Shown here piece after piece: positions 7,409-39,725 of a stretch of DNA of 46,506 nt. Numbering within the stretch: the first letter of the stretch is position 1; each line of letters starts with the position of its first letter. The notes beneath the pieces are model-generated. The model made no database searches and was not told where the DNA came from. It saw only the letters and a list, made by a program, of their open reading frames with translations. Origin of the DNA: an uncultured Clostridia bacterium. GTDB taxonomy: Bacteria; Bacillota; Clostridia; Christensenellales; Borkfalkiaceae. The translations under genes were made by a program, and so were the position numbers. The stretch is from positions 1 to 46,506 of the forward strand of contig CAZRJY010000001.1 of the NCBI GenBank assembly GCA_964600525.1, written 5' to 3'.

Positions 7409-7434
7409 AGAGATAATTGAGGAATAAGGTTATT

Positions 7435-12583: not shown

Positions 12584-12584
12584 A

Positions 12585-13397: not shown

Positions 13398-13413
13398 AAT
13401 TTCCTCATAATTT

Positions 13414-13442
13414 ATTATAACAACGCGCGCGCGTAAAGTCAA
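13414..13442 (-). promoter_or_regulatory. candidate consensus promoter of the CxxC-membrane protein / polyferredoxin-thioredoxin operon
   Basis: On the minus strand: TTGACT-17 nt-TATAAT. The spacer contains the palindrome ACGCGCGCGCGT (13423-13434). GAGGAA and the ATG follow within 16 nt. Confidence 0.5.
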
Positions 13443-13453
13443 CATTTTCCCGC

Positions 13454-13483
13454 TTGACAAAGGTTGCCAAATACCTTTATAAT
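13454..13483 (+). promoter_or_regulatory. candidate promoter of the cyuA-like gene
   Basis: TTGACA (13454-13459)-18 nt-TATAAT (13478-13483). It lies back-to-back with the minus-strand promoter, with the two -35 boxes 11 bp apart. Confidence 0.5.
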
Positions 13484-13498
13484 CTATACGGTGCTACT

Positions 13499-14809: not shown

Positions 14810-14840
14810 AAAAGCTCTCCGAACAGGAGAGCTTTTAAAT
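14810..14840. terminator. bidirectional rho-independent terminator (cyuA-like gene / end of the opp operon)
   Basis: The sequence is aaaaGCTCTCCgaacaGGAGAGCtttt followed by aaatttt. It forms an 11-bp stem including the A/T extension, with T-runs on both strands. Confidence 0.75.
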
Positions 14841-14841
14841 T

Positions 14842-15102
14842 TTAACTTACCCAAAGCCAGGCGATTAATCCCATAATACCGAATACCAGAATTACAATTA
14901 AAAACACGGGCGCATAGGCGGCAAACGCCGCGCGCACAAGCTGTCTGTATTCCTTTCGGGACATTTTCTGCCTGTGCTTTTTCATTCCGCTTTGACTGCG
15001 TTTTTTTAAATTCGGGTCGTACCAACGGAACCCCTCCACGTTCATATCCGCAAAGGTGGTTTCCATATCCAAATCGTCTTGTTTTTTATTCTTTTTCGAC
15101 AT
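14842..15102 (-). CDS. small basic protein with C-terminal TM helix, function unknown
   Basis: 86-aa ORF. Its start overlaps the oppF stop by 17 nt. The C-terminal helix is APVFLIVILVFGIMGLIAWLWV. A terminator hairpin follows immediately. Only a weak RBS is present, so the start (M1 versus M13) is uncertain. Confidence 0.45.
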   Translation of the reverse strand: MSKKNKKQDDLDMETTFADMNVEGFRWYDPNLKKRSQSGMKKHRQKMSRKEYRQLVRAAFAAYAPVFLIVILVFGIMGLIAWLWVS

Positions 15103-16354
15103 TATCGGTTTTTACTTCTTCAACCTGAGGATTTTCTGCCGCGGTCACACCGTCTGTATCCGCTTCGGTCGCACCGTCTGTATCCGCCGCGGTCGCACCG
15201 CTCTTCTTTTTGAATATGTTCTTAACGGTTGTTACTATCTTGGTTTTAGCCACGTTCCAGGGCTTCTTCGCTTCCTTTTCGGCGCGCGCCCTCTCTTCCT
15301 CGTCGTTGATATCAGCCTGCGCAAGCAGTCTTTCGGTGTCCTCGGCGCTGTTGTAAAGATGGCACGAGCAGAAATGCCCTTCCTCGATTTCCCTGTACTC
15401 GGGTGCAATGCGGCCGCAGATTTCCATACAGTGCTCGCAGCGCGTGTGGAATTTACAGCCCTTGGGCGGATTGACGGGCGAAGGAATATCGCCCTTTAAC
15501 ATTATTCTGTTCATCTTCACGTGCGGATTGGGCACGGGAACCGCCGAGAAAAGCGCCTTGGTGTAAGGGTGCAGAGTATTATTGAATATCCTATCCTTAC
15601 TGCCGTACTCGACAATGTTGCCGAGATACATTACGCCTACGTCGTCGGATATGTGCTTGACAACCGACAAGTCGTGCGAAATGAATATGTATGTCAGACC
15701 GAGCTTCTCCCTCAGCTCGATAAGCATATTTATAACCTGCGCCTGTATGGATACGTCGAGCGCGGATACCGGCTCGTCGCATACGACAAGCTTGGGTTTA
15801 AGCGCCAAGGCGCGCGCGATACAGATACGCTGTCTTTGTCCGCCCGAGAACTCGTGCGGATAACGCTCGAAATAATGGGGCTGTAAGCCGCACATATTCA
15901 TAACGTTAAGAACGTAATCGTGGAAGCCCGCTCTGTCCACAAGCCCGTGCTGGCGCGCGGACTCGCCGATTATCTCGCCTACCGTAAGGCGGGGCGAAAG
16001 ACTCGCGTACGGGTCCTGGAATATCATCTGCATATTGGGGCGCAGTTTGTCGAACTCGCGGTTTTTGAGCTTAGCCACGTCCTGACCGTCGAATATAATC
16101 TCGCCCTCTACGCCGTCGTACAGTCTTAAAAGCGACCTGCCCATGGTAGATTTGCCGCAGCCCGACTCGCCGACTATGCCGAGGGTTTTGCCCTTGTACA
16201 GCGTGAACGATATGCCATCTACCGCCTTTAAAAACTTGGTCGGTTTGCCGAAAAGGTTGGTTTCGACGGGGAAATATTTCTTTAAATTCTTGACTTCGAG
16301 GAGCGGTTCGCCCGCAGCGGTATTTTCCAATACGACTTCTTCGTTATTGTCCAT
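15086..16354 (-). CDS. oppF: oligopeptide ABC transporter ATP-binding protein OppF-type, with ~90-aa charged/acidic C-terminal tail
   Basis: Walker [10 protein letters not shown], signature FSGGQRQR and Walker B LVVCDEPVSALD are present. The Opp C-terminal Cys motif is present: CKFHTRCEHCMEICG...HFCSCH. It is the second ATPase of an ABCDF-ordered cluster. Confidence 0.9.
   Translation of the reverse strand: MDNNEEVVLENTAAGEPLLEVKNLKKYFPVETNLFGKPTKFLKAVDGISFTLYKGKTLGIVGESGCGKSTMGRSLLRLYDGVEGEIIFDGQDVAKLKNREFDKLRPNMQMIFQDPYASLSPRLTVGEIIGESARQHGLVDRAGFHDYVLNVMNMCGLQPHYFERYPHEFSGGQRQRICIARALALKPKLVVCDEPVSALDVSIQAQVINMLIELREKLGLTYIFISHDLSVVKHISDDVGVMYLGNIVEYGSKDRIFNNTLHPYTKALFSAVPVPNPHVKMNRIMLKGDIPSPVNPPKGCKFHTRCEHCMEICGRIAPEYREIEEGHFCSCHLYNSAEDTERLLAQADINDEEERARAEKEAKKPWNVAKTKIVTTVKNIFKKKSGATAADTDGATEADTDGVTAAENPQVEEVKTDNVEKE
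15143..15200 (-). repeat. 24-nt in-frame tandem repeat (about 2.4 copies) in the oppF C-terminal tail
   Basis: The copies are ggtcacaccgtctgtatccgcttc, ggtcgcaccgtctgtatccgccgc and ggtcgcaccg. They encode ...ADTDGATEADTDGVT... Confidence 0.85.
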
Positions 16355-17645
16355 TGCCGTCCTCCTTCGTATCCTCGTACAGATAGCACGCCACCTTATG
16401 AGTAGGCGACACCTGCACGTAGTCGGGGTATTCGCCCGCGCACTTTTCCTTGCACATTTCGCATCTGTCGCGGAAATAGCAGTAATCGGGCATATTTATG
16501 GGGTTGGGAACAAAGCCCGGTATGCAGTAAAGTTTGTCCACTTCGGCGTCTACCGTCGGCTTGCTCTTTTGAAGTCCTATCGTGTAAGGGTGCATGGGGT
16601 GGTCGAAAATGTCCTCCGCCGTGCCCATTTCGATAACTCTGCCCGCGTACATTACAACAACAAAGTCAGCCATTTCGGCAACTACGCCCAAGTCGTGCGT
16701 AATCAGCATTATCGAACCGTTAATCTTGTGCTTGATGTCCCTTAAAAGGTCGAGTATCTGCGCCTGAATGGTAACGTCTAGCGCGGTCGTAGGCTCGTCG
16801 GCAATAATCAGCTTGGGGTTGCACAAAAGCGCGATTGCTATCATAACCCTCTGGCGCATACCGCCCGAAAGCTCGTGAGGGTATTTTTTGTAAACGCCCT
16901 CCGCATCGGCTATGCCGACCATTTTGAGCATGTTTATGCTGTGCGCCTTTACCTGCTTTTTGGATATGCCTTCTATGTGTAAAAGTCCGACCTCGTCAAG
17001 CTGGTTGCCTATGGTGAACACGGGGTTCAAGGAGGTCATAGGCTCCTGGAAAATCATTGCGATTTCTCTGCCGCGGATTGAGCGCATAGCCTCGGTAGGC
17101 ATCTTTGCGATGTCTACTACTCTGTCCTCCATCTCGTAAACGTTGCCGCCGAGTGAGTTCTTTTTTATTACGGGCTTGCCCTTTTCGTCGAGCTTGGTGC
17201 GCTCCTGTCCGTCTTCGCCGGTTTCGGTTTCGTACACGGGGATTTTCTTGCCGCGCGCGTCGCGCTTGAAAAGACTTGCCTTAAATCTTATTGAGCCGCT
17301 TACAATCTGTCCGCTGGGCGCCTGCACAAGCTGCATTAAGGAAAGCGAAGTTACGCTTTTGCCGCAGCCCGATTCGCCTACCACGCCCACGGTAGAGCCC
17401 GCGGGTATCGAGAAGGTTACGCCGTTTACCGCCTTGACCGTGCCTGCGTCCGAAAAGAAATAGGTGTGAAGGTCGTCGAACTCGATAATGTTGTTGTCGT
17501 CCTTCATTTCGGTCGTGTAGTCGTCGGGCTTGGCGCGGCGCTTCTTCTGCTTTTCGTAGTAGCGGATAGCCTTGGAATTTTCTTTGGCAATTGCGCGCGA
17601 TTCCGAGCGGGATATATAGTGCTTTTTATCCTTGTTTGTCGCCAT
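16344..17645 (-). CDS. oppD: oligopeptide ABC transporter ATP-binding protein OppD-type, with N-terminal extension and internal ~50-aa insert
   Basis: Walker [13 protein letters not shown]-loop AMIFQEP, signature LSGGMRQR and Walker [13 protein letters not shown] are present. The C-terminal Cys motif is [14 protein letters not shown]...KVACYL. There is an extra ~52 aa at the N-terminus and an insert at about 17124-17276. Confidence 0.9.
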
Positions 17646-17647
17646 AA

Positions 17648-18763
17648 TTACCTCTTCATCTTAGGGTCGAAGGCGTCGCGCAAGCCGTCCCCGACAAAGT
17701 TAAACGCCAGTATGGCAAGCGTTATGCACACGCCCGCGCCCACCCACAGATTGGGATAGTACTGCCTGTACGTGTTGTTGCTTGCAAGGTTTATAAGGTT
17801 GCCCCAGGTAGCCGTGCCGTAGGGCGCGCCGATGTTCAAGAAGCCCAGCGTCGCTTCGGTCAGAATTATACTGCCTAAGCCCAAAGTCATAGATACGATA
17901 AGCTGGGGTATTACGTTGGGCATAAGGTGCTTGAATATTTTCGAGAAGGTCGAAAGTCCCGAAGCCTTGGCGGCAAGCATGAACTCCTGCTCGCGCAAAG
18001 ACAAAATCTGTCCGCGCACAAGCCTTGCCGTTCCTACCCAGCCGATTAGACAGAGCACCATCATCATATAATACAGCTTTGCTATGCTGTCGCCCAAGCC
18101 GCATGCGGTGAAGATTACCGACAGAATAAGCATTATGGGAAGCGACGGTATACAGCTTAAAATATCGACTATACGCATTATAAGGTTGTCTACCCACTTG
18201 CCGAAATAGCCCGCAAGACCGCCCATTACAACGCCGATAAGCGTTTCGATTATAACGACTACGAAGCCGATTGTAAGCGAAACTCTGCCGCCGTACATAA
18301 GGCGCGTAAGCACGTCGTAGCCCATATCGTCGGTGCCCATCCAGTGCGCCGCGCTGATGTCGCCCATCTTAACCACCTGCGGAAGTCTTACCGACACCGC
18401 AAGCGCGTTGTGCGCCTCGTCGCCTATGTAGTATTTTATGGGCGACACCGAAATAAGTTCCTTTATGCGCGAAGGGTCGCTGTCCAGCTTGGTGCCGCCG
18501 TTAGCCGCCCAGGGCGAGAAAACCGGTCCCAAAAACGCGAACAGGAACAATAATACTATGGTCACAAGTCCGATAACGGACAGCTTGGAACGGAAAAATC
18601 TCTTTAAAACGGTCATCCAGGGCGAAAGCACCTTTGCCCTTTCGGTAAGGTTTTCGCCGTGCAAATCGTCGCCGCCGACCTGCGCGTCGTTCGCTACGGT
18701 CGTCTCGGTGATTGTTGCGTTCTCGTCCGCCAATACTTCGGCTTCGGTATTCTTATCTTCCAT
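17648..18763 (-). CDS. oppC: oligopeptide ABC transporter permease OppC-type with acidic N-terminal extension
   Basis: 371-aa polytopic ORF. It carries an EAA-type loop, QEFMLAAKASGLSTFSKIFKHLMPN, typical of OppC/DppC. An AAGGAGG RBS is present. Confidence 0.9.
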   Translation of the reverse strand: MEDKNTEAEVLADENATITETTVANDAQVGGDDLHGENLTERAKVLSPWMTVLKRFFRSKLSVIGLVTIVLLFLFAFLGPVFSPWAANGGTKLDSDPSRIKELISVSPIKYYIGDEAHNALAVSVRLPQVVKMGDISAAHWMGTDDMGYDVLTRLMYGGRVSLTIGFVVVIIETLIGVVMGGLAGYFGKWVDNLIMRIVDILSCIPSLPIMLILSVIFTACGLGDSIAKLYYMMMVLCLIGWVGTARLVRGQILSLREQEFMLAAKASGLSTFSKIFKHLMPNVIPQLIVSMTLGLGSIILTEATLGFLNIGAPYGTATWGNLINLASNNTYRQYYPNLWVGAGVCITLAILAFNFVGDGLRDAFDPKMKR

Positions 18764-18775
18764 ACGCTGCCTCCT

Positions 18776-19786
18776 TTACTTGCCGAGCTTGACCCTGGGG
18801 TCGACTACCGCGTACATAATATCGGCGAACAGAACGCCGATAACCGTGAGCACGGCAAGGAACATATTGTAGCCCATTGCAAGGAACACGTCGCCGCTCA
18901 AAAGCGCTTTGTATGCAATGTTGCCGATACCGGGCAGGTCGAACACCTGCTCGGTTATCATTGCGCCGCCGAACAGCGTCGGAAGCGTGAACGACAACTG
19001 GGTTACAAGGGGTATCATAGTGTTGCGGAAAACGTGCTTGTATACGACCTTTCCTTCCGAAAGACCTTTTGCGCGCGCCGTTCTTATGTAGTCGGCGTTG
19101 AGCACTTCGAGAGTGTTCGTACGCGTATAGCGCATAAGTCCGCCGATGCTTAAAAGCACCATAACCGTCATGGGAAGAATGAGGTGCCAGATTTTATCGA
19201 TGAAAATCTCGAACTCCGTTCCCATTACACCGCTGGTTAAGCCGTGCGTTTCGAACCAGCCCAAATCGACCGCAAACCATTTGATAAACAGGTTGCCGAG
19301 GAAGAAGGACGGGAATGCTATGCCGACCATGCAGAGTACGGTTGCCACGTAGTCGAGCTTGCCGTACTGGTTGACCGCGCACTTTACGCCGAGGGGAATT
19401 GCAATTGCCATTTCCAGAAGCAAAGCCACGAACGAAATGCCGAACGACAGCCACATATACTGTCCGATAACGTTCTGCACGGGTGCGCCCTGGTGCTGGA
19501 AGGATATGCCCATATCGCCCTGCAAGAACCTGCCGAGCCACATAAAGTAGCCCTTGAATATTCCCCAGGCGGAGTCGTCTTCCAACCCGTAGGGCGCAAG
19601 CTGTTCCCTAAGCAGTCTTTCCGCTTCCTCATCGCTGTCGATGGGGTCGTAGTTAGCTCGCAACGACACAAACTGGTCCTTCAAATAGTTGGCGGGCATA
19701 CACCTTATGAGAACATATAATATTACCGATACGCCGAACAGAATAAGAAGCGCCAGCAGTAATCTTTTGATTATATATTTAACCAT
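18776..19786 (-). CDS. oppB: oligopeptide ABC transporter permease OppB-type
   Basis: 336-aa ORF. The N-terminus MVKYIIKRLLLALLILFGVSVI and the EAA loop ADYIRTARAKGLSEGKVVYKHVFRN are typical of OppB/DppB. Confidence 0.9.
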   Translation of the reverse strand: MVKYIIKRLLLALLILFGVSVILYVLIRCMPANYLKDQFVSLRANYDPIDSDEEAERLLREQLAPYGLEDDSAWGIFKGYFMWLGRFLQGDMGISFQHQGAPVQNVIGQYMWLSFGISFVALLLEMAIAIPLGVKCAVNQYGKLDYVATVLCMVGIAFPSFFLGNLFIKWFAVDLGWFETHGLTSGVMGTEFEIFIDKIWHLILPMTVMVLLSIGGLMRYTRTNTLEVLNADYIRTARAKGLSEGKVVYKHVFRNTMIPLVTQLSFTLPTLFGGAMITEQVFDLPGIGNIAYKALLSGDVFLAMGYNMFLAVLTVIGVLFADIMYAVVDPRVKLGK

Positions 19787-19810: not shown

Positions 19811-22480
19811 TTATTTAACGTAGTTCAACTTCCAAAGTTCGCTGATAGGTCCCATATTGTAGGAGGGTTCCGCAGTCATAGTGCTTCTGTCGAGAACGCC
19901 CTTTCTGAATATGCACAAATCGTTACGCTGATAGGTGGGGAATTCAACCGCAAGCTCCATTATAAGGTCGAGTGCGCCGCCGTCGCCGCCGTATATGTTC
20001 GAACGCGTACGTTCGTTAAGCGTCTGTCTGCCTTCGATAATCTTCTGGTTTAAACGGGTTGCAATATCGTACTCCTTGGCAAACTTATCGGGGTTGTTGA
20101 TTATGCCGTCCTTGTTCCAGTTGTTGGTGCTCGACGCTCTGGAATTGATACTGTAAATCTGGTAAGGGTCGGGGTCGATACTCGACGACCAAGCCGCCGC
20201 CCATACTTGAAGTTTACCCGAAACAAGCTTTGTAAGCGCCTGAGGGTCGTTACCTACCGAAATGTTGAAGCCCGCTTCTTCCAGGAAGTTCTTGGCATAG
20301 GTGAACATTGCGTATGCGGGGTGGTCGGTAGATTCGCCCGCGATTACGAAGCTGTAACTGAGATTTTGTTTTGCGCCGTTCTTATACCAGCCGTCAGACC
20401 TCTTTTCCCATACGCCGTTGCTGTCCGACTCGATAAAGTCTATAAGCTCGTCGGCGGTTGCCGCAGGCTCGTAATAAGGAGTTTCCTGCTTGCTTCTGTG
20501 TCCGTAAGCCGGATTCCATACCCAGGACGTAAGCGTCATAGGTCTGTTGATTATGTTTACAAGCGAATCGCCGTAGTATTCCAAAAGCGCCGAGGTGTCG
20601 AAAGACTTCATTATAGCGCGCCTTATGGTTATATCCTCGATGTACCTGGGGTTGATACCGATATAGCCGTAGCCGCCCGTTTCGTAAGTGATATGCTCGA
20701 ACTTGTCGGGGCTGAACGCAGCCTGGTTATCCGACTTTGCGGTAGGCTCGCCGTAGTCGATTTCGCCCGTTTTAAGCGAGTTTACTATCTGGTCGTCGCT
20801 TGTTACCTTGTAGGTTACGTATTTGATTTTAGCGTTCTCTACCTGCTTGCCCATCGTCTCGAAATAGGGGTTCCTCTCGAAGAACGCCATATAGTTGTAC
20901 CAGAAATTGTCGTGGGTTACGCCCGTAGAGCTGTAATTGTAGGTGCAGCATCTGTAAGCACCGGCGCCCACGGGAACGCCGTTTTTGCTGCCCGCGGAAA
21001 GCACGGTGGACGAGAAGCCGCTGTCCCTGTACTTAACGCCGAAGTTTCTTGCGTCCGGGGTGTAAACAACGCCGCTTTCGTAGTCGTCCATAGCCAGCTT
21101 GACGTAGTCTACTCCGTCATAAGTGCCCGAATAATAGTGCATGGGCGCTACCGCGAAGCCGAAGTTCCACTTTGCCTTGGGGTCTACGCCGACGATTTCA
21201 ATCTTTAAAATGTCGTGTTCCTCGTCGTAGGTCTTGCCGTTGAACTCTTTGGAGTGCGAAACGGTTATACCCGAGATATTGTTTATACGCTGTGCGTCGG
21301 TTTCGTTTTCCTTTGTCTGCTCGTCCTTAATAAACTCGCTTAACGCGGTGCCCGACGTAGCGTTGTAGGTGAGAATGTTGTGGATATTCGAATCAATCGT
21401 ATTGCTGTTATACAGATACTTTACCGCATAATCCTTTGTAACGGCAAGCTTTGCATTCTCTCTGCTCGTGCCGGGGTTGTTTGCGATATATTCGTCAATC
21501 TTTGCGTCGGTAATATTCTCGGCAACGTCGTTGAGTATTCTCTGTCCGCGCTGAGTAACTACGCCCGTTTCGTAATTGGGGTCGATTTCGGTGGGATACT
21601 TGCCGTTGTCGTCCTTAAAGCGCACAGGTATGCCGTTGTCGTTGAGCTTGGTCTGCTCGCCGAAAACCTGCTCCATGAAATAGTACGCCTGCCAGACTTC
21701 GGTGAAATAATAGTCCTTATAGGTTTCCGCCCAGCTTGTCGCAATAGCGTTCCAGTCGGTGGTGAGCTCTTCTTCATAGAGCTTCTTTACCTTTGCAAGG
21801 TCCTCTTTCTGAGCGGCGGAAAGCTCGCCCTGCGTAGTGCCGTTAGACCAGCGTATAAGCGCGTCGATACGGCTCTTTGCCGCTGCGTAATACTTGGTCA
21901 TGGAAATGTCGGAATCCTCGCTTGCGCCCTCTTTATTCTGTCTGTACGACTGCAAGCCCTTTATTTTGGTCGAATAAATGGTACTCGAACCGCTGTAAAG
22001 AGGGTCGAGATATACGTAAAGGTTAAACAGTACGTCCATAACCGTGAGGTCTACGCCGTCGGAGAACTTCATACCTTTCTTTATTAAGAACTCGTATGTA
22101 GTACTGCCCTCGATGTCCACCGAGCTTTCGTTGAAATCGACGCTCGAACCGTCGCCCGTACCAAGCTTAACACCCGCCTTGTTGTAGTAGGTTTCCAGAT
22201 AATCGAGCGCAACCGTAGGCTGGTTTTCGCCGACTACAAGCTTACCGTCCTCGTTGGTGGTGATAAGCGATACCTGGGTAAGTCCCGCAATCGTACCGTC
22301 GTTCATCGAGGTGTAGAACAGGGGATTGAATTTTTCGTCGCACGCGCCTATCGAAAGCCTTAAAGGTGATTTCTCGGGGTCGCGGCCCGAATTCTTTTTA
22401 CACGCCGCCGCACAAAGCGTGCCCGCCGCGAGCGCGCCCGCAAGTCCCGTGCATAAAAGTGCTTTAAATATCTTTTTCAC
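19811..22480 (-). CDS. oppA: ABC transporter substrate-binding lipoprotein, family 5 (OppA/DppA-type), expanded to 889 aa
   Basis: GTG start with an AAGGAGGA RBS. Signal peptide plus lipobox: LAAGTLCAAAC. SBP_bac_5-like segments are present (KKGMKFSDGVDLTVMDVLFNLYVYLDP; ISGITV...ILKIEIVGVDPKAKWNFGFAVAPMHYY). A ~220-aa insert lies between them (about 21281-21943). Confidence 0.85.
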   Translation of the reverse strand: MKKIFKALLCTGLAGALAAGTLCAAACKKNSGRDPEKSPLRLSIGACDEKFNPLFYTSMNDGTIAGLTQVSLITTNEDGKLVVGENQPTVALDYLETYYNKAGVKLGTGDGSSVDFNESSVDIEGSTTYEFLIKKGMKFSDGVDLTVMDVLFNLYVYLDPLYSGSSTIYSTKIKGLQSYRQNKEGASEDSDISMTKYYAAAKSRIDALIRWSNGTTQGELSAAQKEDLAKVKKLYEEELTTDWNAIATSWAETYKDYYFTEVWQAYYFMEQVFGEQTKLNDNGIPVRFKDDNGKYPTEIDPNYETGVVTQRGQRILNDVAENITDAKIDEYIANNPGTSRENAKLAVTKDYAVKYLYNSNTIDSNIHNILTYNATSGTALSEFIKDEQTKENETDAQRINNISGITVSHSKEFNGKTYDEEHDILKIEIVGVDPKAKWNFGFAVAPMHYYSGTYDGVDYVKLAMDDYESGVVYTPDARNFGVKYRDSGFSSTVLSAGSKNGVPVGAGAYRCCTYNYSSTGVTHDNFWYNYMAFFERNPYFETMGKQVENAKIKYVTYKVTSDDQIVNSLKTGEIDYGEPTAKSDNQAAFSPDKFEHITYETGGYGYIGINPRYIEDITIRRAIMKSFDTSALLEYYGDSLVNIINRPMTLTSWVWNPAYGHRSKQETPYYEPAATADELIDFIESDSNGVWEKRSDGWYKNGAKQNLSYSFVIAGESTDHPAYAMFTYAKNFLEEAGFNISVGNDPQALTKLVSGKLQVWAAAWSSSIDPDPYQIYSINSRASSTNNWNKDGIINNPDKFAKEYDIATRLNQKIIEGRQTLNERTRSNIYGGDGGALDLIMELAVEFPTYQRNDLCIFRKGVLDRSTMTAEPSYNMGPISELWKLNYVK

Positions 22481-22515: not shown

Positions 22516-24027
22516 TTAAGATTGCTCTTCCTGTAACTTGGTAAATGTGTTGGTTCCGCTCAGCTTAACGCCCGTAAACTGCGCAAGGAACGCCTCGTCG
22601 CTCGCCGCGCCGCCGAACAGCCAGTTGCTGCGGTCGTCGCCGATAGCGTTATGGATTGTGGGCGTGCCCTGATAGGTTGCGGTAACGTTTTCTATCTTCA
22701 AATCCAAATTTGCCGCCGCCGCTTTTACCTCGGCGCTGATTGCATAGAATTCGAACGAAGTATTACTGATAGGTATGGTGATTTTTATGTCTTTAAGCGT
22801 TAAGCCCGAAACGCTGAACTGCTCGCTTACCGTGCCGAGCATCGAATAGCACAGACCCTGCTTGGGCGTGGGCACGTTTACGGTAAGTCCGCTTATGGTG
22901 TGGGGCTTATCGCATACTATCGTCGCGTTTGCCGCCCTCGTCGTCTTTTCCTTTGCGTTGAGCGCGGCCGTCGTACCGTATTCTATATCGTTTATGACAA
23001 AGAATTTTTTCGGAGTGCGCGCGTTGAGCGAGCCGAACATGCTTTCCGCGTCCGCCGCCGTCCTTACCACCGTCCAGTCGCCCACGATATAGTGGCAGTA
23101 AACTCTGGGGTTTTCGGCGTCGGGGTCGGTGGGTCTGGGAATATAATTCAATCCCTCGCTTAAATCGGCGTTCAGCGTCTTTACGAAGGTCAGTCCGTTT
23201 ATCTTTACCTGCTCGTTACTCTGCGGAGTTTCACCGTCGTCGGCGATGGGGAAGGATACAAGCACACTGCCGTGTTTAAAGGTCGATTTACCGTCCTCCG
23301 AGGTATATTCAGTACCGTCGTCCAGAACGTTGCCCTTTTCGTCGGTTATTCTCAGATGGTATTCTATCTCCTTCTTGGGCAACCAGCGCGCACACACGAT
23401 AAGTCCGTGCGCGTCGTCGATATTTTTCTCGATTTTCGTGCCGCCGGTAACTCTTTTATCCGAACAGACTATCGTAACGTCCTTTTCGAGTATCTTTTCG
23501 TCTACAAGCTCGCCCTGCGCGTTTTCCCTTGCGAATACGGGGCGGTCGGTCTTGGAGTCGGTTACGGGGTAGCCGTTCGCTTTGAGAACGGGGAACACCC
23601 TGACGGTGATATTGTCGGGATTTTTTTCGTCGAACTTCTCCGCAGGCTTGGACGCATCGTTTTCGTCGGGCGTATAAGTGTACTCATACATGATTTCGCC
23701 CGCGTGGGCGCCGCCCTCGGGATAAGTTGCAGGCTCGTACCAGCCCTCAAAGTCCCACGAGCCGCGCTGCACCTTCATACCTCTGCTCTTTTCGGTAATT
23801 TCAAAGAAGGGCACGCCGCCGTCTTCGCTCTTAAAGTAAATTTCCCTTACTTTCAGCGAGGTGGAAGTGTCGAAATATCCGCCGTTCGAATAGTAAGTTA
23901 CGTGCGTGTCGTAACCCGCGAGCAATGAGCTGCGCCCCGGTCTGCCTATCTTACAGCCGACAAGAGTGCAGGCAAGACACGCCGCCGCAAATACTATTAG
24001 CAAGTAAACCTTTAATCTCTTAGTCAT
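22516..24027 (-). CDS. lipoprotein, function unknown (tentative Listeria-Bacteroides/InlB B-repeat-like segment)
   Basis: 503-aa ORF. Signal peptide plus lipobox: LIVFAAACLACTLVGC. The segment THVTYYSNGGYF...RGSWDFEGWYEP resembles the B-repeat pattern ending in GY.F.GWY. Its start overlaps the stop of the S8 giant gene (ATGACTAA). Confidence 0.85.
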   Translation of the reverse strand: MTKRLKVYLLIVFAAACLACTLVGCKIGRPGRSSLLAGYDTHVTYYSNGGYFDTSTSLKVREIYFKSEDGGVPFFEITEKSRGMKVQRGSWDFEGWYEPATYPEGGAHAGEIMYEYTYTPDENDASKPAEKFDEKNPDNITVRVFPVLKANGYPVTDSKTDRPVFARENAQGELVDEKILEKDVTIVCSDKRVTGGTKIEKNIDDAHGLIVCARWLPKKEIEYHLRITDEKGNVLDDGTEYTSEDGKSTFKHGSVLVSFPIADDGETPQSNEQVKINGLTFVKTLNADLSEGLNYIPRPTDPDAENPRVYCHYIVGDWTVVRTAADAESMFGSLNARTPKKFFVINDIEYGTTAALNAKEKTTRAANATIVCDKPHTISGLTVNVPTPKQGLCYSMLGTVSEQFSVSGLTLKDIKITIPISNTSFEFYAISAEVKAAAANLDLKIENVTATYQGTPTIHNAIGDDRSNWLFGGAASDEAFLAQFTGVKLSGTNTFTKLQEEQS

Positions 24028-34900: not shown

Positions 34901-36615
34901 ACCGCCGAAAGACTGTTGTCGGAAGGGCCTGCATAGTTTGCCGCGTAGCAGCCGGCAATTACCGTATTTTCCTCGGCGTAGCCGACGATGCCGCCCGCGT
35001 ACGCACCCTTATATTCTTCGGTAACGTTTACGCTGCCGAGCTGGTTGTTTGCGGAAATCTGCGCCGACGAATAGCTGTTGGATACGGACGAAAATCTGCC
35101 GAGCGAACCGACGATACCGCCCGAGTGCATAGCGCCGTTTACCGAGCCCTTGGAATAGCAGTTGATAACGTACGACGCCGCGTTTTCCTCGGGGGAAATC
35201 AGATAGCCGACAATGCCGCCTGCCGAGCGGGGGCAACCCGTACCGTCTATGGATACGACCGCCGAGCTCGAACGCACGAACGCGCCGTGAGCAACCTCGC
35301 CCTGCGCGGTGGTGCCGTACGCGCCTTGAAGTCTGCCTACGATACCGCCAACGTTTACAATCTGGTTGTTGTCGTTGTAAACTGTGATATTGCCCGAACC
35401 CGTTATGACTTTACAGCCCGAAATTTCAGCGCCTATGCCGTAGCCGAGTATAGAGCCCGCGAACGCGCCCTTGCCCGACGACGCCGTATGAACTTCAAGC
35501 GAATAATCTTCGAGGGTTAAATTTTTGATAACGGGTGCGCTGATGTTATTGTTAGCGTCGACCGTAGCCACCGCGTAACCGAACAGTCCGACGTTAGGCA
35601 GATACGCCTGCGCGTACGAACTCTGGTCGGTAACCTCGTCCGTTATATAGAAGTTGCTGATTTTGTGACCGTTGCCGTCGAACGTGCCGCAGAACGCGGA
35701 GACCGACGTTGAGCCGTCGCCGATTACGAACAGCTGCTCGCCGTCCATATCGATATCGTTCATAAGCTTATAGTTCAGTCCCGAGAAACTGCCGCCGTAA
35801 AAGCTGTCGTTGATGATTACAGCCATGTAATAGAGGTCGACGGGCGTTCTGATTTCGAAGGGGTGCTCTGCCGAGCCGTCGCCGTAGCGGCCGTCCCCGT
35901 AGTTGGCAAATGACTGTTCGAGCGTGAGACCCGTAATACTGACTTCGCCGCTTTCGCCCACTTCCTGAATGGTATAAACGCCTTTGTCGTCCTTGACAAG
36001 CTCCTCGAAGCCGCAGCTTACCGTAAATTCGTCGTTGTAATAGGGGCTGGTCCAAATTCTGAATTTGAAGTCGTCGCCGCCTGCTACCGTCACTTCCTCG
36101 TTAAGCTCTCTCTTGCCGCTCTCGTCTAAAAACTTAATTCTGCGTTCCTCGGCATACTCGACGCCGTCGGAGTTTGTAACCTTCTCGAAAGTGGAAAATT
36201 TGAGGGTGTGCAGCGCTTTGAGCCCCGTAACCGATATCTCGGAGTTCGCCTGCATTTTAAACGAATAAACTCTGTCCGAACCGGGCGTGAGCTGTTCGCC
36301 GTTTACGCTTACTACGGGAGTACCCGTGGTATTAGCGCCGGGCACAACCTTAAAGCGCACGTCAAGTCCCGCTCTGACCTTGCCGCCGAATTTGAAGCTT
36401 TCGCCGTCCGCGTCGGGTTCGGCAAGCTCGCCCTCGAACACGATGTCCACGCCGCTGCCTTTAAGGTCAAGCTGATAGTATTCGGGCGGGTCCGTTGTGA
36501 TTTCGCCCGGATTGCTCGGTCCGTTGTTCGAACTGTTGCACGCCACGGCGCCGCAAAGGCACGCCGCGCTCGCCGCAACCATTATTCCAATCAGAAATTT
36601 TTTGAATTTATTCAT
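31912..36615 (-). CDS. giant GLUG-motif surface lipoprotein with C-terminal array of degenerate repeat modules
   Basis: 1567-aa ORF with a GGAGA RBS. Signal peptide plus lipobox: MVAASAACLCGAVAC. GLUG-type region at about 34816-35868: FCGTFDGNGHKISNFYI, VGLFGYA, VGGIVGRL, AGGIVGYL, SGGIVGSL, AGGIVGYA. Six G-x-W...F-(D/N)-G modules lie at about 32296-33858. Confidence 0.9.
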   Translation of the reverse strand: MNKFKKFLIGIMVAASAACLCGAVACNSSNNGPSNPGEITTDPPEYYQLDLKGSGVDIVFEGELAEPDADGESFKFGGKVRAGLDVRFKVVPGANTTGTPVVSVNGEQLTPGSDRVYSFKMQANSEISVTGLKALHTLKFSTFEKVTNSDGVEYAEERRIKFLDESGKRELNEEVTVAGGDDFKFRIWTSPYYNDEFTVSCGFEELVKDDKGVYTIQEVGESGEVSITGLTLEQSFANYGDGRYGDGSAEHPFEIRTPVDLYYMAVIINDSFYGGSFSGLNYKLMNDIDMDGEQLFVIGDGSTSVSAFCGTFDGNGHKISNFYITDEVTDQSSYAQAYLPNVGLFGYAVATVDANNNISAPVIKNLTLEDYSLEVHTASSGKGAFAGSILGYGIGAEISGCKVITGSGNITVYNDNNQIVNVGGIVGRLQGAYGTTAQGEVAHGAFVRSSSAVVSIDGTGCPRSAGGIVGYLISPEENAASYVINCYSKGSVNGAMHSGGIVGSLGRFSSVSNSYSSAQISANNQLGSVNVTEEYKGAYAGGIVGYAEENTVIAGCYAANYAGPSDNSLSAVSVNGVNYMSTGAFAGAYAKPNPNSAEDTVKYSTDYAVLVEYNNATAVANHPTSAFTALGWLGTDWDFSGTLPEIIIAGAARTVTVKIEQYNNPSFTRSFSRTAVAPITDWYKQSGGLPEYHENAAGRSWGYYFDKAMTKKVPCGFIPVNAETKLYAGYADYTQVAGTYYVEEAGYTNGAYIILTADGKAQIRNGGLYYECTYSYNGSQIILYRSCLAALAYGEDQINGGYFAYGGTAANGVLNLVAYLNLVNPSGSLEEGTYYVTETTTLKAVKASANFVYGEYKDANGVVYLFRRNGTGVKTVENTTSAFTFTPAANSFNIMLDRAVAVTVNPDGTVDTVDNVSVSKLDEFKGSWKKTANGLTEFTFDGEGYVSMNGGEAVELTADNGFEIGGVEYKATFANGCLVINGENYYKNDGFTGEWFMLGAKEQILVTFDGIGTNCYGTATVSYTGGESLSLEAEYDVFETANGKYVRIYVGDRQYGELLYGQSSAAGSFYSLLYNRYDSFTFYLYDLFRGVWTAAGADFDTVTFNGRSASSDLCEVAVRTAGNVTLSGTYTLTDNTHGTMTVGGKTYTIAYDGATNLISFGYEAEGETSVSGQLGRRDGWYGAQLSDGTLTYTFDGKSNVGGTVKVSDGTELAYTIANGSVTMGGELLEPNASGFEWNGQTLSFNTGFAGEWLISGVDNVLTIYEVGGSLTANVTATGVSGTHNFVFDPAAKTLTLTEGETVTLIKLKGETEMSITITSRGGNKYYNCLKNGLEDSWKGVYSAVGGSQNWKFDGLGKCKYGGGTAIYTDASGNSVKYGYRINEIGVPYIKATENVVFIEKENGDYEHGGKLYGTVTVNSYYGRTVFTEGQDGRTNYYFDGVKTLWEKGADGEYTAAYEYGIVTAARAELIKDGVRYNGLMEEAGISIKLTVSEQIKATEAGVTYAFGVTTLWRINAEGGYEKAYTYTVTDAEKGEYELTDNDGNKFTAKLTGNTITIKAKEDATEQA

Positions 36616-36680
36616 AATTTATTCTCCGCACGGTAAACCGCCATAAAGCAGACTATAACCCTATTTTCTCATTCTCTTCT

Positions 36681-36709
36681 ATATTATCATAAACGTCAAC
36701 ATAATGCAA
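36681..36709 (-). promoter_or_regulatory. candidate promoter of the GLUG / S8-LRR / lipoprotein / opp operon
   Basis: On the minus strand: TTGCAT-17 nt-TAATAT, about 65 nt upstream of the ATG at 36615, with a GGAGA RBS. It lies in the only long (315-bp) intergenic gap of the block. Confidence 0.4.
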
Positions 36710-36788
36710 AGTAATATAGCCCCGTTACAACAATTATTTTCCATAAAAATTACTTATATCTGCGCCGTTTTTTGTTCACCTTAATATT

Positions 36789-36811
36789 TTATGCAAAATT
36801 TAAATGCATAA
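36789..36811. promoter_or_regulatory. 23-bp inverted repeat TTATGCA-N9-TGCATAA, candidate operator/activator site
   Basis: The 7-bp arms are perfect around an A/T-only 9-bp spacer. The site lies about 80 bp upstream of the candidate -35. Confidence 0.35.
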
Positions 36812-36875
36812 ACGTATAGCCGCGTGTCGTGGCAGCCGGGTCCTTTAATTGCCTTTGCGTGGCACAGACTAATCA

Positions 36876-36912
36876 CGGCAAAACAAAAGCCGGCGGTGAA
36901 CCACCGCCGGCT
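36876..36912 (-). terminator. rho-independent terminator after the 925-aa lipoprotein gene
   Basis: On the minus strand the sequence is AGCCGGCGGTGgttCACCGCCGGCT followed by TTTTGTTTTG. It is the only strong hairpin+T signal inside the 31.6-kb same-strand block. Confidence 0.8.
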
Positions 36913-36930: not shown

Positions 36931-39708
36931 TTAATTTTGGGGACGCGAAAGTATTATGGTTTCGCTTCTCGTAGGATAAGTTGCGTGCTTGATTGAAAGC
37001 TTGTAAACTTCGTTTAAAGCGAACTCGAATTGGAAGGTTTCGTCGTTCCTGCCCGAAACGTACTCGCTTGTCAATACGTGCGTTTCGGCGTTATAGGTGT
37101 AGTTGTATATGCACGTCAATGTGCTGGAACCGTCGGTAACTTCCACTTTGAAAGTGCCTGTGGTGCTGTCCGAAACGTCGGGATTAACCGTCACTTTTAC
37201 GTCCGCGGGTCTGAGAGCGCCGTTTTCGTTTATTTTTATATAATTGAACCTGCCATTATACTCGCCCGAGAACATACCCTCTACCGAAGGCGCCTCCACC
37301 ACCTTAATTCTTATGTCGGTGCTCGCCACGGGGGTTGAGCCGTTCATTATCGTCGAATCGATATAAACTTTGGCGCCGTTGCTGTTGGTGGTAACTTTAA
37401 GCGGAGTAATTTTGCTTACCGTAATCGGTTTGCCTGCATTGTCTACTCCGTCGATATTGTCTTCGAGTTTGAAGTACGAACTGTAAGTGTTGGAAACCGA
37501 GGTTACAAAGCTGTCGTCAACGTATTTCGCCTCCTCGGAGGTAGCCGTGGCACGCACGTACAGCGGCTGACCCACGTACAGCGTTACGGGTTCTTTACAC
37601 TCCGTCCAGACGTGCGTTTCCGTTCCGTTGGCGTCGGAATACGTATACACGTAAGGAATAAGATTTGTGGGGTTACCCTTCTTTATATCCATCTTGATTT
37701 CGCGTTCGCACTTGCCGCTCACCGTACGCAGTATAAGGGATAAATCGTCGCCCGCGTACTGCGCGTTGAAAAATACCGTATTGTTGCTGCGGTTGAAATT
37801 TCCCACTATATGGTACGCGTTCTGGTCGAAATCGGCTTCGCCCGTATAGCTCAGCTCTATCTCCGTCGTCTTGGTTTTAAGGAACACGCGCAGAGGGTCG
37901 AATTCCAGCTTTGCCGTTTCGGCGGGTTGAACGTTGGATATGTTGAATATAACGTTGGTGTTTGCCTTTACTTCGATTTTTTCGCCGTCCTCAATCTTCT
38001 TGCCGCCGTACGTTACGTCGAACGACTGAATATATACGCTTTCGGGGGGATAAGGGTTTGCTTCAACCTTCTCGCCCTCCGCTTTCAAGGTGTTGTTGAA
38101 CTCTACCACGCGGATTGCGATAAAGGAGTGGTCCGCTTCGTAAACGTCGTCGGTGCCGTCGTACTTTTTATCGCCCTTTTCGTAGTAGTACTTTCTTAAA
38201 TCGCCTTCCTTCCAGCCCTGCGGAACGGGTCTTCCGATTTCGTTGCCGAACCTGTCGATAAGGGTCGTGCCGTCGGGCTTCTGTTTTACGCCTTCCACAA
38301 GTATTGATTTTACGATAAGATGCTTTATTTCGTTGCCGTCCTCGTCGGTCGCAACTACTTTGTCGCCGTGTTCGTCGAGCACGAATTTGCCTTCCTCGTC
38401 GGTGAGATAGGTATACTCGTATTTGAGACTGCCGTCCTCGTTCCTCTCGTAGTCCGCCTCGTACAAATCCTCGCTCGTTTCGGGGTCGAGAGGATAAATT
38501 TCACCGAAAATCACGTCGCCGTCCGTATCGAAAATAAGCTCGCCGACGTTGGTGCCGTCAAACGAATTGGCAAGCATAAACGCACGGATAATCTTGGTCC
38601 TTACCGAAAGCGTTTTGATTGCACCCGATGCGTAAAGCGTGAAATTCACGGTGTAACGGCAGAAATGCGTCTGCTCTTTTCGGCTGAACGAGAAACTGCA
38701 TACGTACTCGTTATTGGACGTCTTTACGAAATTGTCCTCGTACTTGATAGCCGTGTCCGACTGCGACGCGTTGTAATAAGTCAAAAGCGTGTCCTCGGCG
38801 CCGTAAGTTCTGCGCATGCCGCCGCCCGACTCATATCCGTAACCGAGTAAATCCTGCTCGGAAACGCCCTCGTCGATGCGGGGGTCAATCTTGACTTCGC
38901 CGTATTCGGCTTTCCAGCCTTCGGGGGGATTATCGGGGTCTTCGGGCTCGTTGGTAATTACCGTCTGCACTTCTGCGGAAATTCCGAAAGGCTTGCCGTT
39001 TTCGTCGCGTGAATACCAGAAATCCCTTCTGTTGCCGTCGTCGTGAACGCGCACGTAATTGTCGCCGTAGTAATTGCTGAAATTGCTGGAAAACAGCTTT
39101 GCGGTAGGGTCGTATTTGTCGGAATTTTGGTCGTATACGGGGTCGTCGGGGTCGCCCGTGACGTATCTGCCGTTGCTCTCGCGTATCAAATCGTGCAGCG
39201 ACGAACCCAGAAGCGCCGCGTCCTCGACGGTCTCCACCGCCGTGCGTTTGGGCAACTGTATATCGAATTCCACGTTGCCCGCAGTGTGCGCATATACAAA
39301 GTGACGGCTGCCCGCCGAAATTATCGTGGGCTTTGCGGTCACGGGGCTCGAAACGTAGCCCGTACCAGCCTCGGTTACAACGGGCAAAGTAGCCTCGGCA
39401 ACGTGCGAAGCGTCGAGCTTGCAGGTTCTGGTCGCCTTGCCCTCTTTGCTTTCGGTGGGATATTCGTTGATTTCCCAGTCGTTATAGTCGTGGGCGTCGG
39501 GGTTTATAGGAATTACTTCCGCAATAACGTGGCCGCACACGCATTTACCCGTCCTCTGACCGGGGGCGACGCAGGTCGCCTCGTAGTCGGTTGTCCAGTT
39601 GGGCGCGTGCTGGTGTCCGCCCTTGTTGCAGCCCGCAAGAGCGGTTGCGCCGAGCGTTGCCGCCATTACGAGAGATGAGAACATTGTCAAAATCTTTTTG
39701 CTTTTCAT
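36931..39708 (-). CDS. large lipoprotein, function unknown (N-terminal His/Cys-rich modules)
   Basis: 925-aa ORF. Signal peptide plus lipobox: LVMAATLGATALAGC. The N-terminal region HAPNWTTDYEATCVAPGQRTGKCVCGH...HDYNDWEINEYPTESKEGKATRTCKLDASH looks like short Cys/His modules seen in Firmicute surface proteins. A rho-independent terminator follows. Confidence 0.88.
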   Translation of the reverse strand: MKSKKILTMFSSLVMAATLGATALAGCNKGGHQHAPNWTTDYEATCVAPGQRTGKCVCGHVIAEVIPINPDAHDYNDWEINEYPTESKEGKATRTCKLDASHVAEATLPVVTEAGTGYVSSPVTAKPTIISAGSRHFVYAHTAGNVEFDIQLPKRTAVETVEDAALLGSSLHDLIRESNGRYVTGDPDDPVYDQNSDKYDPTAKLFSSNFSNYYGDNYVRVHDDGNRRDFWYSRDENGKPFGISAEVQTVITNEPEDPDNPPEGWKAEYGEVKIDPRIDEGVSEQDLLGYGYESGGGMRRTYGAEDTLLTYYNASQSDTAIKYEDNFVKTSNNEYVCSFSFSRKEQTHFCRYTVNFTLYASGAIKTLSVRTKIIRAFMLANSFDGTNVGELIFDTDGDVIFGEIYPLDPETSEDLYEADYERNEDGSLKYEYTYLTDEEGKFVLDEHGDKVVATDEDGNEIKHLIVKSILVEGVKQKPDGTTLIDRFGNEIGRPVPQGWKEGDLRKYYYEKGDKKYDGTDDVYEADHSFIAIRVVEFNNTLKAEGEKVEANPYPPESVYIQSFDVTYGGKKIEDGEKIEVKANTNVIFNISNVQPAETAKLEFDPLRVFLKTKTTEIELSYTGEADFDQNAYHIVGNFNRSNNTVFFNAQYAGDDLSLILRTVSGKCEREIKMDIKKGNPTNLIPYVYTYSDANGTETHVWTECKEPVTLYVGQPLYVRATATSEEAKYVDDSFVTSVSNTYSSYFKLEDNIDGVDNAGKPITVSKITPLKVTTNSNGAKVYIDSTIMNGSTPVASTDIRIKVVEAPSVEGMFSGEYNGRFNYIKINENGALRPADVKVTVNPDVSDSTTGTFKVEVTDGSSTLTCIYNYTYNAETHVLTSEYVSGRNDETFQFEFALNEVYKLSIKHATYPTRSETIILSRPQN

Positions 39709-39725
39709 ATAAGTTTACTCCAAGT

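Follow-up and report, generated by a model that had tools for sequence, protein, structure and literature searches.

The 46,506-nucleotide (nt) stretch analyzed here (contig CAZRJY010000001.1 of assembly GCA_964600525.1, from an uncultured Clostridia bacterium of the Borkfalkiaceae; hereafter the window) encodes on its minus strand a 2622-amino-acid (aa) S8 protease that very probably works like a cell-envelope proteinase (CEP). To judge from its sequence, it does so with a new body plan, which departs from the classical one in the B domain, the wall anchor, and the PrtM feature. The gene is embedded in a tight eight-gene cluster that also encodes an Opp importer, and we consider it probable that the membrane-anchored enzyme feeds this dedicated importer, digesting external protein as food.

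A CEP-type subtilase head

The protease open reading frame (ORF; 24020-31888, minus strand) starts with ATG, has no internal stops, and is preceded by a ribosome-binding site, AAGGAA, 8-13 nt 5' of the start codon. Given its length and the scores of its domains, a chance origin of the ORF is impossible. From the N terminus to the C terminus, it comprises the following features, some of which were delimited in AlphaFold 2 (AF2) models with their predicted local confidence (pLDDT).

31751..31888 (-), aa 1-46: signal peptide with a basic n-region and a hydrophobic core at aa 13-36 (hydropathy scan and translation)
31277..31750 (-), aa 47-204: pro-region, conserved across the family
29609..31276 (-), aa 205-760: S8 subtilase catalytic domain (Pfam Peptidase_S8 and SpyCEP alignment)
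30038..30250 (-), aa 547-617: PA insert within the catalytic domain, between N435 and S682 (Pfam PA)
29168..29533 (-), aa 786-907: Fn3_5 domain, the Fn3-like domain of CEPs and C5a peptidases (Pfam fn3_5, 1.6e-9)
28109..29116 (-), aa 925-1260: conserved region without a Pfam match, with beta-sandwich domains beyond about aa 1025 (AF2)
27482..28108 (-), aa 1261-1469: two Big_2-type Ig-like domains (Pfam Big_2, 3.2e-9, in two stretches)
24884..27481 (-), aa 1470-2335: solenoid of BspA-type (LRR_5) leucine-rich repeats (LRRs) and its cap (Pfam, PDB matches, motif count, AF2)
24629..24877 (-), aa 2338-2420: helical bundle (AF2, pLDDT >90 here; helices at model positions 199-280)
24365..24616 (-), aa 2425-2508: Ig-like beta-sandwich (AF2; Foldseek matches 2l7y and LigA 8gyr)
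24215..24364 (-): Gly/Pro/Ser-rich linker (aa 2509-2530) and transmembrane (TM) helix (aa 2531-2558) (hydropathy scan)
24023..24214 (-), aa 2559-2622: cytoplasmic tail, a KKRK stop-transfer sequence and then a 60-aa acidic stretch ending QQENSGEDKTDD (composition)

The signal peptide is likely cleaved after A-N-A, directly before D. The pro-region that follows is probably a subtilisin-type propeptide: in a PDB sequence search, aa 137-230 weakly matched pro-subtilisin E (3whi; E value, 3e-5), and a Pfam scan of the pro-region gave no match, leaving the I9 propeptide undetected.

The catalytic domain was matched by Peptidase_S8 (PF00082) with an E value of 3e-34 (119.1 bits; cutoff, 21.8). Its motifs, VAVLDTGLD (D220), NHGTHVAG (H305), VAASNS (N435, the oxyanion-hole Asn), and SGTSMACP (S682), follow the canonical subtilisin order, and they remain in register when aa 208-938 are aligned to SpyCEP/ScpC (7edd and 5xyr; E value, 1e-44). 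The C5a peptidases 1xf1 and 3eif match the same region, the E values ranging, SpyCEP included, from 1e-44 to 1e-35. The PA insert corresponds to the "I domain" of CEPs; it scored 26.9 bits (cutoff, 23.9) when aa 401-767 were scanned alone and 22.6 bits, below the cutoff, in a scan of the whole protein, and PF02225 (PA) is precomputed on most homologues. The fn3_5 match reached 38.9 bits (cutoff, 27.6); the string LNLPFMGFYGDW occupies aa 902-913, and the SpyCEP alignment continues to aa 938. Among curated NCBIfam models, aa 113-925 were best matched by NF040553, the SGO_0316/SGO_0317 LPXTG serine peptidase (E value, 1.5e-59), but a score of 201.8 bits against a family cutoff of 1400 does not make the protein a member. 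Collectively, these features suggest that the protein is an apparently active S8 enzyme of the CEP/C5a-peptidase type.

A conserved gene cluster with an Opp importer

The protease is the second of eight genes that occupy about 21.9 kb (15086-36615), all on the minus strand and separated by gaps of at most 35 nt or overlapping. A 1567-aa lipoprotein with GLUG motifs comes first; the protease is followed by a 503-aa lipoprotein, an 889-aa OppA-like lipoprotein, and OppB, OppC, OppD, and OppF. A surface proteinase and a full importer (binding protein, two permeases, and two ATPases) are present in one cluster, so that the set of CEP-Opp components is complete. All three accessory proteins carry lipoprotein signal peptides.

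36671..36912 (-): likely upstream operon boundary, with a strong terminator of the preceding gene at 36912-36888 and promoter-like hexamers at 36710-36671 (consensus matches)
31912..36615 (-): 1567-aa lipoprotein with GLUG motifs (lipobox in the translation; Pfam Glug), ending 23 nt before the protease start
22516..24027 (-): 503-aa lipoprotein with an LVGC lipobox; the gene overlaps the end of the protease gene by 8 nt
19811..22480 (-): 889-aa family-5 solute-binding lipoprotein, OppA-like (SBP_bac_5, 6.7e-26; lipobox)
18776-19786 (-): OppB, first gene of the Opp block 15086..19786 (Pfam BPD_transp_1, OppC_N, ABC_tran, and oligo_HPY across the block)
17648-18763 (-): OppC
16344-17645 (-): OppD
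15086-16354 (-): OppF
14810..14836 (-): likely operon end, marked by a hairpin resembling a terminator about 250 nt beyond the stop codon of oppF (consensus match)

From OppB to OppF, the genes overlap or are at most 24 nt apart. Conservation of the cluster was assessed by tblastn of the window's neighbors against 83 related loci, with Opp genes counted in the 58 loci that have at least 8 kb of flanking sequence. An oversize solute-binding protein and OppB, OppC, and OppD lie directly downstream of the protease on the same strand in 50 of these 58 loci, over a span of 36-79% identity, and the gene order is identical around homologues with 73% and 40% protein identity. This conserved linkage argues for nutritional proteolysis rather than a specifically targeted or host-directed activity.

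An operon that couples an extracellular protease to an importer could also serve the maturation of signaling peptides, with the protease processing a secreted pro-peptide and Opp reimporting the pheromone, as with peptides of the Phr, PrgQ, and XIP type in Firmicutes; Opp importers are known to carry signaling peptides in Bacilli. However, the operon shows no sign of a small pro-peptide gene or an RRNPP-type regulator, pheromone processing would hardly call for two giant lipoproteins and a protease of 2622 aa with a PA insert, and a head of the CEP type is typical of broad-specificity enzymes. We regard this explanation as very unlikely.

The GLUG lipoprotein is the most persistent partner of the protease: in 46 of 64 loci, its gene is the immediate upstream neighbor in the same orientation. 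Elsewhere it follows oppF (L033, L034, L047, L050, L051, and L073) or stands convergently downstream, in "Candidatus Scatosoma" loci without adjacent Opp genes. Its counterpart in locus L039 (18558-23288) matches Pfam Glug at 2.3e-10. Repeated "xYTFDGxG" segments without a database match were observed in its C-terminal two thirds. The 503-aa lipoprotein is fast-evolving and was detectable in 29 of 58 loci; its 8-nt overlap with the protease recurs in L001, and it has no Pfam or PDB match. For these accessory lipoproteins, searches of Pfam (E value of ≤1), NCBIfam, and PDB sequences returned nothing except GLUG motifs.

The OppA-like protein matched the NCBIfam model Opp4A below its cutoff, and AppA (PDB 1xoc) matches it over aa 115-166 only. 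Its SBP_bac_5 match is split, aa 115-166 representing the N-terminal part of the profile and aa 498-782 profile positions 110-364, which indicates an insertion of about 300 aa. A typical OppA has about 540 aa; the size of about 890 aa is kept in related loci. OppD has 433 aa here and in L001 and L002, against about 330 aa in typical OppD ATPases; its ABC_tran match falls into two stretches, which points to an insertion.

A long stalk with a BspA-type LRR array

Two regions beyond the head (aa 925-1480 and aa 2140-2522) were modeled with AF2 on alignments of family members. The first model (pLDDT, 65.5) shows a string of beta-sandwich domains, with about aa 925-1025 not resolved and with the Big_2 region folded as beta-sandwiches at a pLDDT of 70-90. 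Foldseek matched this model to generic Ig-like, S-layer, and adhesin folds only, and a profile search of aa 925-1480 against the PDB gave only weak Ig-like matches. Mean identity to the family is 0.54 over aa 925-1260. The second model (pLDDT, 84.5) shows the end of the LRR array, the helical bundle, and the Ig-like sandwich. The bundle sits at the position of the CEP H domain, as known from the AF2 model and not from sequence homology to the lactococcal H or W domain. The Ig-like segment has a Big_3 match in one homologue.

The LRR array itself is matched by LRR_5 (PF13306) in six stretches with an E value of 8e-112 (368.8 bits; cutoff, 27.7), and its sequence matches in the PDB are 4fs7, 4gt6, 4h09, and TpLRR (6mlx), the best at 1e-31. 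A relaxed count of the core motif gave about 24-26 units within aa 1491-2230, and the AF2 model extends the solenoid to about aa 2335. The LRR region is moderately conserved, and its length stays within 737-880 aa across 116 homologues. Such constraint favors a structural spacer or platform over a rapidly diversifying adhesin. Most plausibly, the solenoid is a rigid spacer and, in addition, a platform to which either substrates or the lipoproteins of the operon bind.

A stronger version of the platform idea would make the array chiefly a docking scaffold, around which the GLUG, 503-aa, and oversize OppA lipoproteins assemble with the protease as a "proteolysome," rather than a binder of substrates or of the host. 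The constrained LRR length is in line with this, as are the joint occurrence of the GLUG lipoprotein and the protease even in loci without an adjacent Opp and the conserved translational coupling of the protease and the 503-aa lipoprotein. However, a protease-less paralogue of the LRR body (described below) stands alone, without these lipoproteins nearby. We therefore consider a chiefly scaffolding role doubtful.

A TM anchor in place of a sortase signal

The protease contains only two hydrophobic segments, the N-terminal signal and the C-terminal TM helix (24215-24298). The last 60 residues include 21 Asp or Glu and a single Lys or Arg. LPXTG is absent from the protease and from all 116 homologues, and a local sample of 1201 ORFs from the window and related loci yielded no LPXTG-type tail. 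In 86 of the 116 homologues, the C terminus is built as in the window protease: the TM helix is followed by a basic stop-transfer sequence and then by a long tail that is acidic for the most part. Many of the long tails, including those of the closest relatives, end in a conserved motif (...ENSGEDKTDD, ...TDEGKNDD, QQENSGEDKTDD, or EGTDND). The other 30 homologues have a short basic C terminus, and 27 of them carry a Cys motif (GCGGCG-like or GCxS) at most 30 residues before the helix. The homologues compared for anchor type include P0042, P0059, P0062, P0067, P0080, P0102, P0109, and P0114. The combination of Cys motif, helix, and basic end looks like a tripartite signal reminiscent of MYXO-CTERM-type sorting signals. 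Curated models of C-terminal sorting signals (MYXO-CTERM, Firmicu-CTERM, Synerg-CTERM, and others) gave only subthreshold scores of 7-14 bits, both with the tail of the window protease and with the Cys-motif tails found in distant homologues.

These results bear out the domain assignments in a preliminary description of this DNA, which had been made from the sequence alone. The residue numbers that it gave for the active site (D220, H305, N435, and S682) are exact and agree with the SpyCEP alignment, and no catalytic residue is substituted, all four being invariant in 116 of 116 homologues. The PA insert (in the subsequence scan) and the CEP-type Fn3 segment score above their Pfam cutoffs, and the two Big_2-like segments that it proposed correspond to the two Pfam stretches. 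Where it had seen at least 20 LRR units at 25169-27481 (aa 1470-2240), the motif count given above is somewhat higher. The Ig-like segment that it placed before the anchor appears in the second AF2 model, and hydropathy and composition agree with its anchor at 24215-24298 (aa 2531-2558) and its 60-aa acidic tail without LPXTG.

A conserved family and the origin of the fusion

A search of 5.8 billion protein clusters, with homologues counted as clusters at 90% identity, returned at least 116 full-length homologues (2355-2652 aa, 40-79% identity, 95-100% coverage) with the same Pfam content. Where names are given, they are "MAG: leucine-rich repeat protein" or "lactocepin." In a survey of one genome per GTDB species, 507 stretches encode a relative. 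The best 80 of these 507 are all full length, so that at least 80 GTDB species representatives carry the protease gene. Carriers among the best 80 are labeled Clostridia bacterium, uncultured Christensenella/Christensenellaceae, "Candidatus Borkfalkiaceae," "Candidatus Coproplasma," and "Candidatus Scatosoma." "Candidatus Coproplasma," a member of the Christensenellales/Borkfalkiaceae, has a genome size of 1.4-1.9 Mb and a GC content of 50-56% (PMC8035907), a range into which the GC content of the window, about 52%, fits.

The preliminary description had called the protein chimeric. It is not a singular chimera, as its architecture recurs from end to end in at least 116 clusters and at least 80 species-level genomes. 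Literature searches on S8 and BspA-LRR proteinases and on proteolysis in Coproplasma, Borkfalkiaceae, and Christensenellales turned up no account of this protease family. The architecture is thus common, within one clade, but it is not characterized: the S8-LRR fusion marks a conserved, uncharacterized protease family of uncultured gut Clostridia.

The unusual size of the ORF, and nothing else, could suggest an assembly artifact or a protease gene and an LRR gene joined by a frameshift. Contigs from an independent public run, derived from a strain about 91-93% identical, tile 24130-34000. A single contig of 3457 nt among them covers 24930-28385 across the Big_2/LRR junction; its indels occur in frame-restoring pairs. 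Since the layout recurs in at least 116 full-length homologues, all independent, and in 80 genome loci, and since an independent contig crosses the junction, misassembly or a frameshift near it is excluded, the probability left to an artifact is negligible, and the ORF is continuous.

Two relatives, P0167 (1515 aa) and P0160 (1444 aa), are protease-less paralogues with signal peptides of their own and no S8 domain. P0167 aligns with the window protease from aa 922 on at 34% identity, through the beta-sandwiches, Big_2 domains, LRRs, helices, Ig-like domain, and TM segment. Its gene is complete and stands alone (L084, 2572-7119) beside a DeoR regulator, in unrelated surroundings that lack Opp, which assigns the linkage with Opp to the protease head. 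The protease is best read from these alignments as an ancient, fixed fusion of a CEP head with an LRR body that is able to exist alone. The conserved Opp operon and this protease-less paralogue are additions to what the preliminary description contained.

A separate idea, that the C-terminal module (LRR cap, helices, Ig-like domain, and TM helix) is a widespread display cassette, was rejected: aa 2241-2622 have only 135 matches among 1.84 billion cluster representatives, mostly from this protease family or fragments of it, with P0167 and P0160 as two that differ.

The best 80 of the 507 relatives all come from gut metagenome-assembled genomes (MAGs), from mouse, rabbit, deer, sheep, and chicken. 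This distribution bears in two ways on the possibility that the protease is a host-directed factor of colonization or immune modulation, in which the LRR array would bind a host protein or the mucosa, the head would cleave a defined host target (for example, a chemokine, a fragment of complement, an immunoglobulin, or a mucin), as SpyCEP, ScpA, and Lactobacillus lactocepin do, and the Opp linkage would be incidental. Gut association of all these carriers is in line with such a factor, and carriage in such different hosts disfavors one specific host target. The best structural relatives, SpyCEP and C5a peptidase, also fit a host-directed role, as does the subset of loci without adjacent Opp. 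BspA-type LRR proteins have been linked to host binding, as proposed for BspA and LrrA. Degradation of IP-10 by lactocepin, another point in favor, is stated in the passage of PMC6693555 that cites von Schillde 2012. Against this stand the Opp linkage kept across distant homologues in most loci and an LRR array whose constrained length and moderate conservation are unlike the lengthening and shortening that an adhesin interacting with the host would be expected to show. On balance, we consider a specifically host-directed role unlikely. By analogy, nutritional and host-directed roles would be compatible, lactocepin being both. Of the earlier suggestion that the fusion serves targeted degradation of a host or dietary protein, degradation of dietary or host protein is compatible with the evidence, whereas "targeted" is disfavored by the Opp operon.

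Flanking genes

Amino-acid catabolic genes flank the operon, an asparaginase-family gene (6249-7277) and an L-serine dehydratase alpha-chain gene (13454-14779), the latter divergent from the oppF end; they are consistent with an amino-acid-using lifestyle. Between them, at 7417-10422, a 1001-aa ORF has one AhpC-TSA/Redoxin domain (aa 162-293) and about 870 other aa without a Pfam match. The gene pair at 10940-13460 recurs near the protease locus of L039 (23517-25382), which carries a relative of 39% identity. The pair encodes a protein of about 280 aa without a match and a Fer4_5/Fer4 protein; the window's version of the latter has a fused Redoxin/AhpC-TSA domain.

On the other side, upstream of the operon, a second tight cluster (36931-46498, minus strand) encodes a DUF58 protein (cut by the window end), a BatA protein with a VWA domain, a 920-aa VWA protein, and proteins of 504 and 925 aa. 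It resembles operons of the Bat/aerotolerance type and is kept beside the protease operon in the closest relatives (L001, L004-L006, L013-L015, L017, L027, and L031).

Comparison with known proteinases

To our knowledge, the layout of this protease is absent from characterized CEPs. It shares with the lactococcal and lactobacillal CEPs (PrtP/lactocepin, PrtB, PrtH, and PrtS) a pre-pro S8 head, a PA ("I") insert, an Fn3-like "A" region directly after the catalytic domain, surface display, a long C-terminal extension (which in the AF2 model of the window protease has a helical segment before the anchor), and a position upstream of an Opp importer (PMC6199461). The classical plan of these enzymes is PP-PR(I)-A-B-H-W-AN (PMC6199461). 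Here, in contrast, the position of the "B domain" is taken by beta-sandwiches, two Big_2 domains, and an LRR_5 solenoid of about 860 aa, and PDB searches found no sequence match to any solved CEP beyond aa 938. Whereas lactic CEPs have an LPXTG or S-layer-type anchor, this protease has a TM helix, KKRK, and an acidic tail. Also unlike in the lactic systems, a maturase gene was not found nearby: no ORF of at least 150 aa in the 46.5-kb window encodes a rotamase/PrsA-like (PrtM/PrsA-type maturase) domain. Finally, protease and opp genes form one operon here, with two extra giant lipoproteins, and the host is an uncultured anaerobic gut clostridial lineage rather than a lactic acid bacterium.

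The closest solved structures by sequence are those of the streptococcal enzymes SpyCEP/ScpC and ScpA/ScpB (7edd, 5xyr, 1xf1, and 3eif), which have the same D-H-N-S order, PA insert, and first Fn3 domain. At about 30% identity, however, these are LPXTG-anchored virulence factors with narrow host substrates (IL-8 and C5a), without LRRs and without an Opp operon. The SGO_0316/SGO_0317 family differs in that the window protease lacks LPXTG and that its C-terminal 1700 residues are unrelated. The LRR_5 repeat type is that of the BspA-type proteins (Tannerella BspA, Treponema LrrA/TpLRR 6mlx, and gut proteins 4fs7, 4gt6, and 4h09), but those proteins, of 200-1100 aa, stand alone as LRR proteins or adhesins and contain no protease, whereas here the array is internal to the protease stalk and constrained in length. 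Treponema denticola dentilisin (PrtP-PrcA-PrcB) is another surface subtilisin with accessory lipoproteins in its operon, a likeness of workings and not of homology; dentilisin is a small acylated subtilisin of a diderm spirochete, with no PA, Fn3, or LRR domain in the same chain and no Opp in the operon.

Proposed function

Based on these features, we propose the following working model. The pre-pro-CEP would be exported by Sec and would then lose its signal peptide and pro-region. The active head (the S8 domain with its PA insert, and Fn3_5) would be held off the membrane by a stalk of more than 1500 residues, formed by the beta-sandwiches, the two Big_2 domains, the LRR solenoid of about 860 residues, the helical bundle, and the Ig-like domain, and followed by the TM helix and the acidic tail. 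The protease, presumably co-transcribed with the three surface lipoproteins and OppBCDF, would cut extracellular protein of dietary, host, or microbial origin to oligopeptides at the cell surface. The adjacent OppA-type binding protein would capture these oligopeptides, and Opp would import them for amino-acid supply or fermentation. The locus may in this way be a self-contained "protein utilization" operon of small-genome uncultured gut Christensenellales. In lactic acid bacteria, the established route of proteolysis leads from a CEP through Opp to peptidases (PMC6199461), and the small genomes of related organisms together with the serine dehydratase and asparaginase genes lend circumstantial support to a nutritional role.

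Several points weigh against this model. The OppA-like protein is very divergent from characterized OppA and AppA, so that its ligand is assumed. The closest solved relatives of the head, SpyCEP and ScpA, are host-directed virulence proteases and not nutritional enzymes, and Opp systems of Firmicutes also import signaling peptides. In about 8 of 58 loci, mostly from "Candidatus Scatosoma," the protease is not adjacent to Opp, and in these exceptions it is still paired, convergently, with the GLUG protein. Neither a CodY box nor a riboswitch was found at the operon promoter: the CodY-box consensus had only two matches in the window, each with three mismatches, far from the operon and at chance level, and an Rfam scan of the window returned nothing. 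Among public runs, only one DNA run contains related sequence, and four RNA runs sharing the sample label yielded no reads.

A more tentative proposal goes one step further. The eight-gene unit might be a Gram-positive "protein utilization locus," whose LRR-bearing CEP, two giant lipoproteins, and oversize OppA would come together on the membrane as a surface machine that captures and cuts protein and hands the peptides directly to OppBCDF, with the LRR array as a platform for assembly and capture and the conserved acidic tail as a coupling or regulatory element. If so, it would be the protein counterpart of the polysaccharide utilization loci of Bacteroidetes and could be a trait that defines the uncultured gut Christensenellales with small genomes (Borkfalkiaceae and relatives).

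Proteolysis by anaerobes of the gut influences inflammation, the turnover of host protein, and the products of amino-acid fermentation. For the Christensenellales/Borkfalkiaceae-type MAGs of mouse, rabbit, ruminant, and bird guts, the locus offers a testable candidate for the feeding route of the lineage, and protein or peptides suggest themselves as an enrichment substrate for isolating carriers. The CEP family, known chiefly from pathogenic streptococci and dairy lactic acid bacteria, would gain a body plan with an LRR stalk, a membrane anchor free of a sortase signal, and no PrtM gene nearby.

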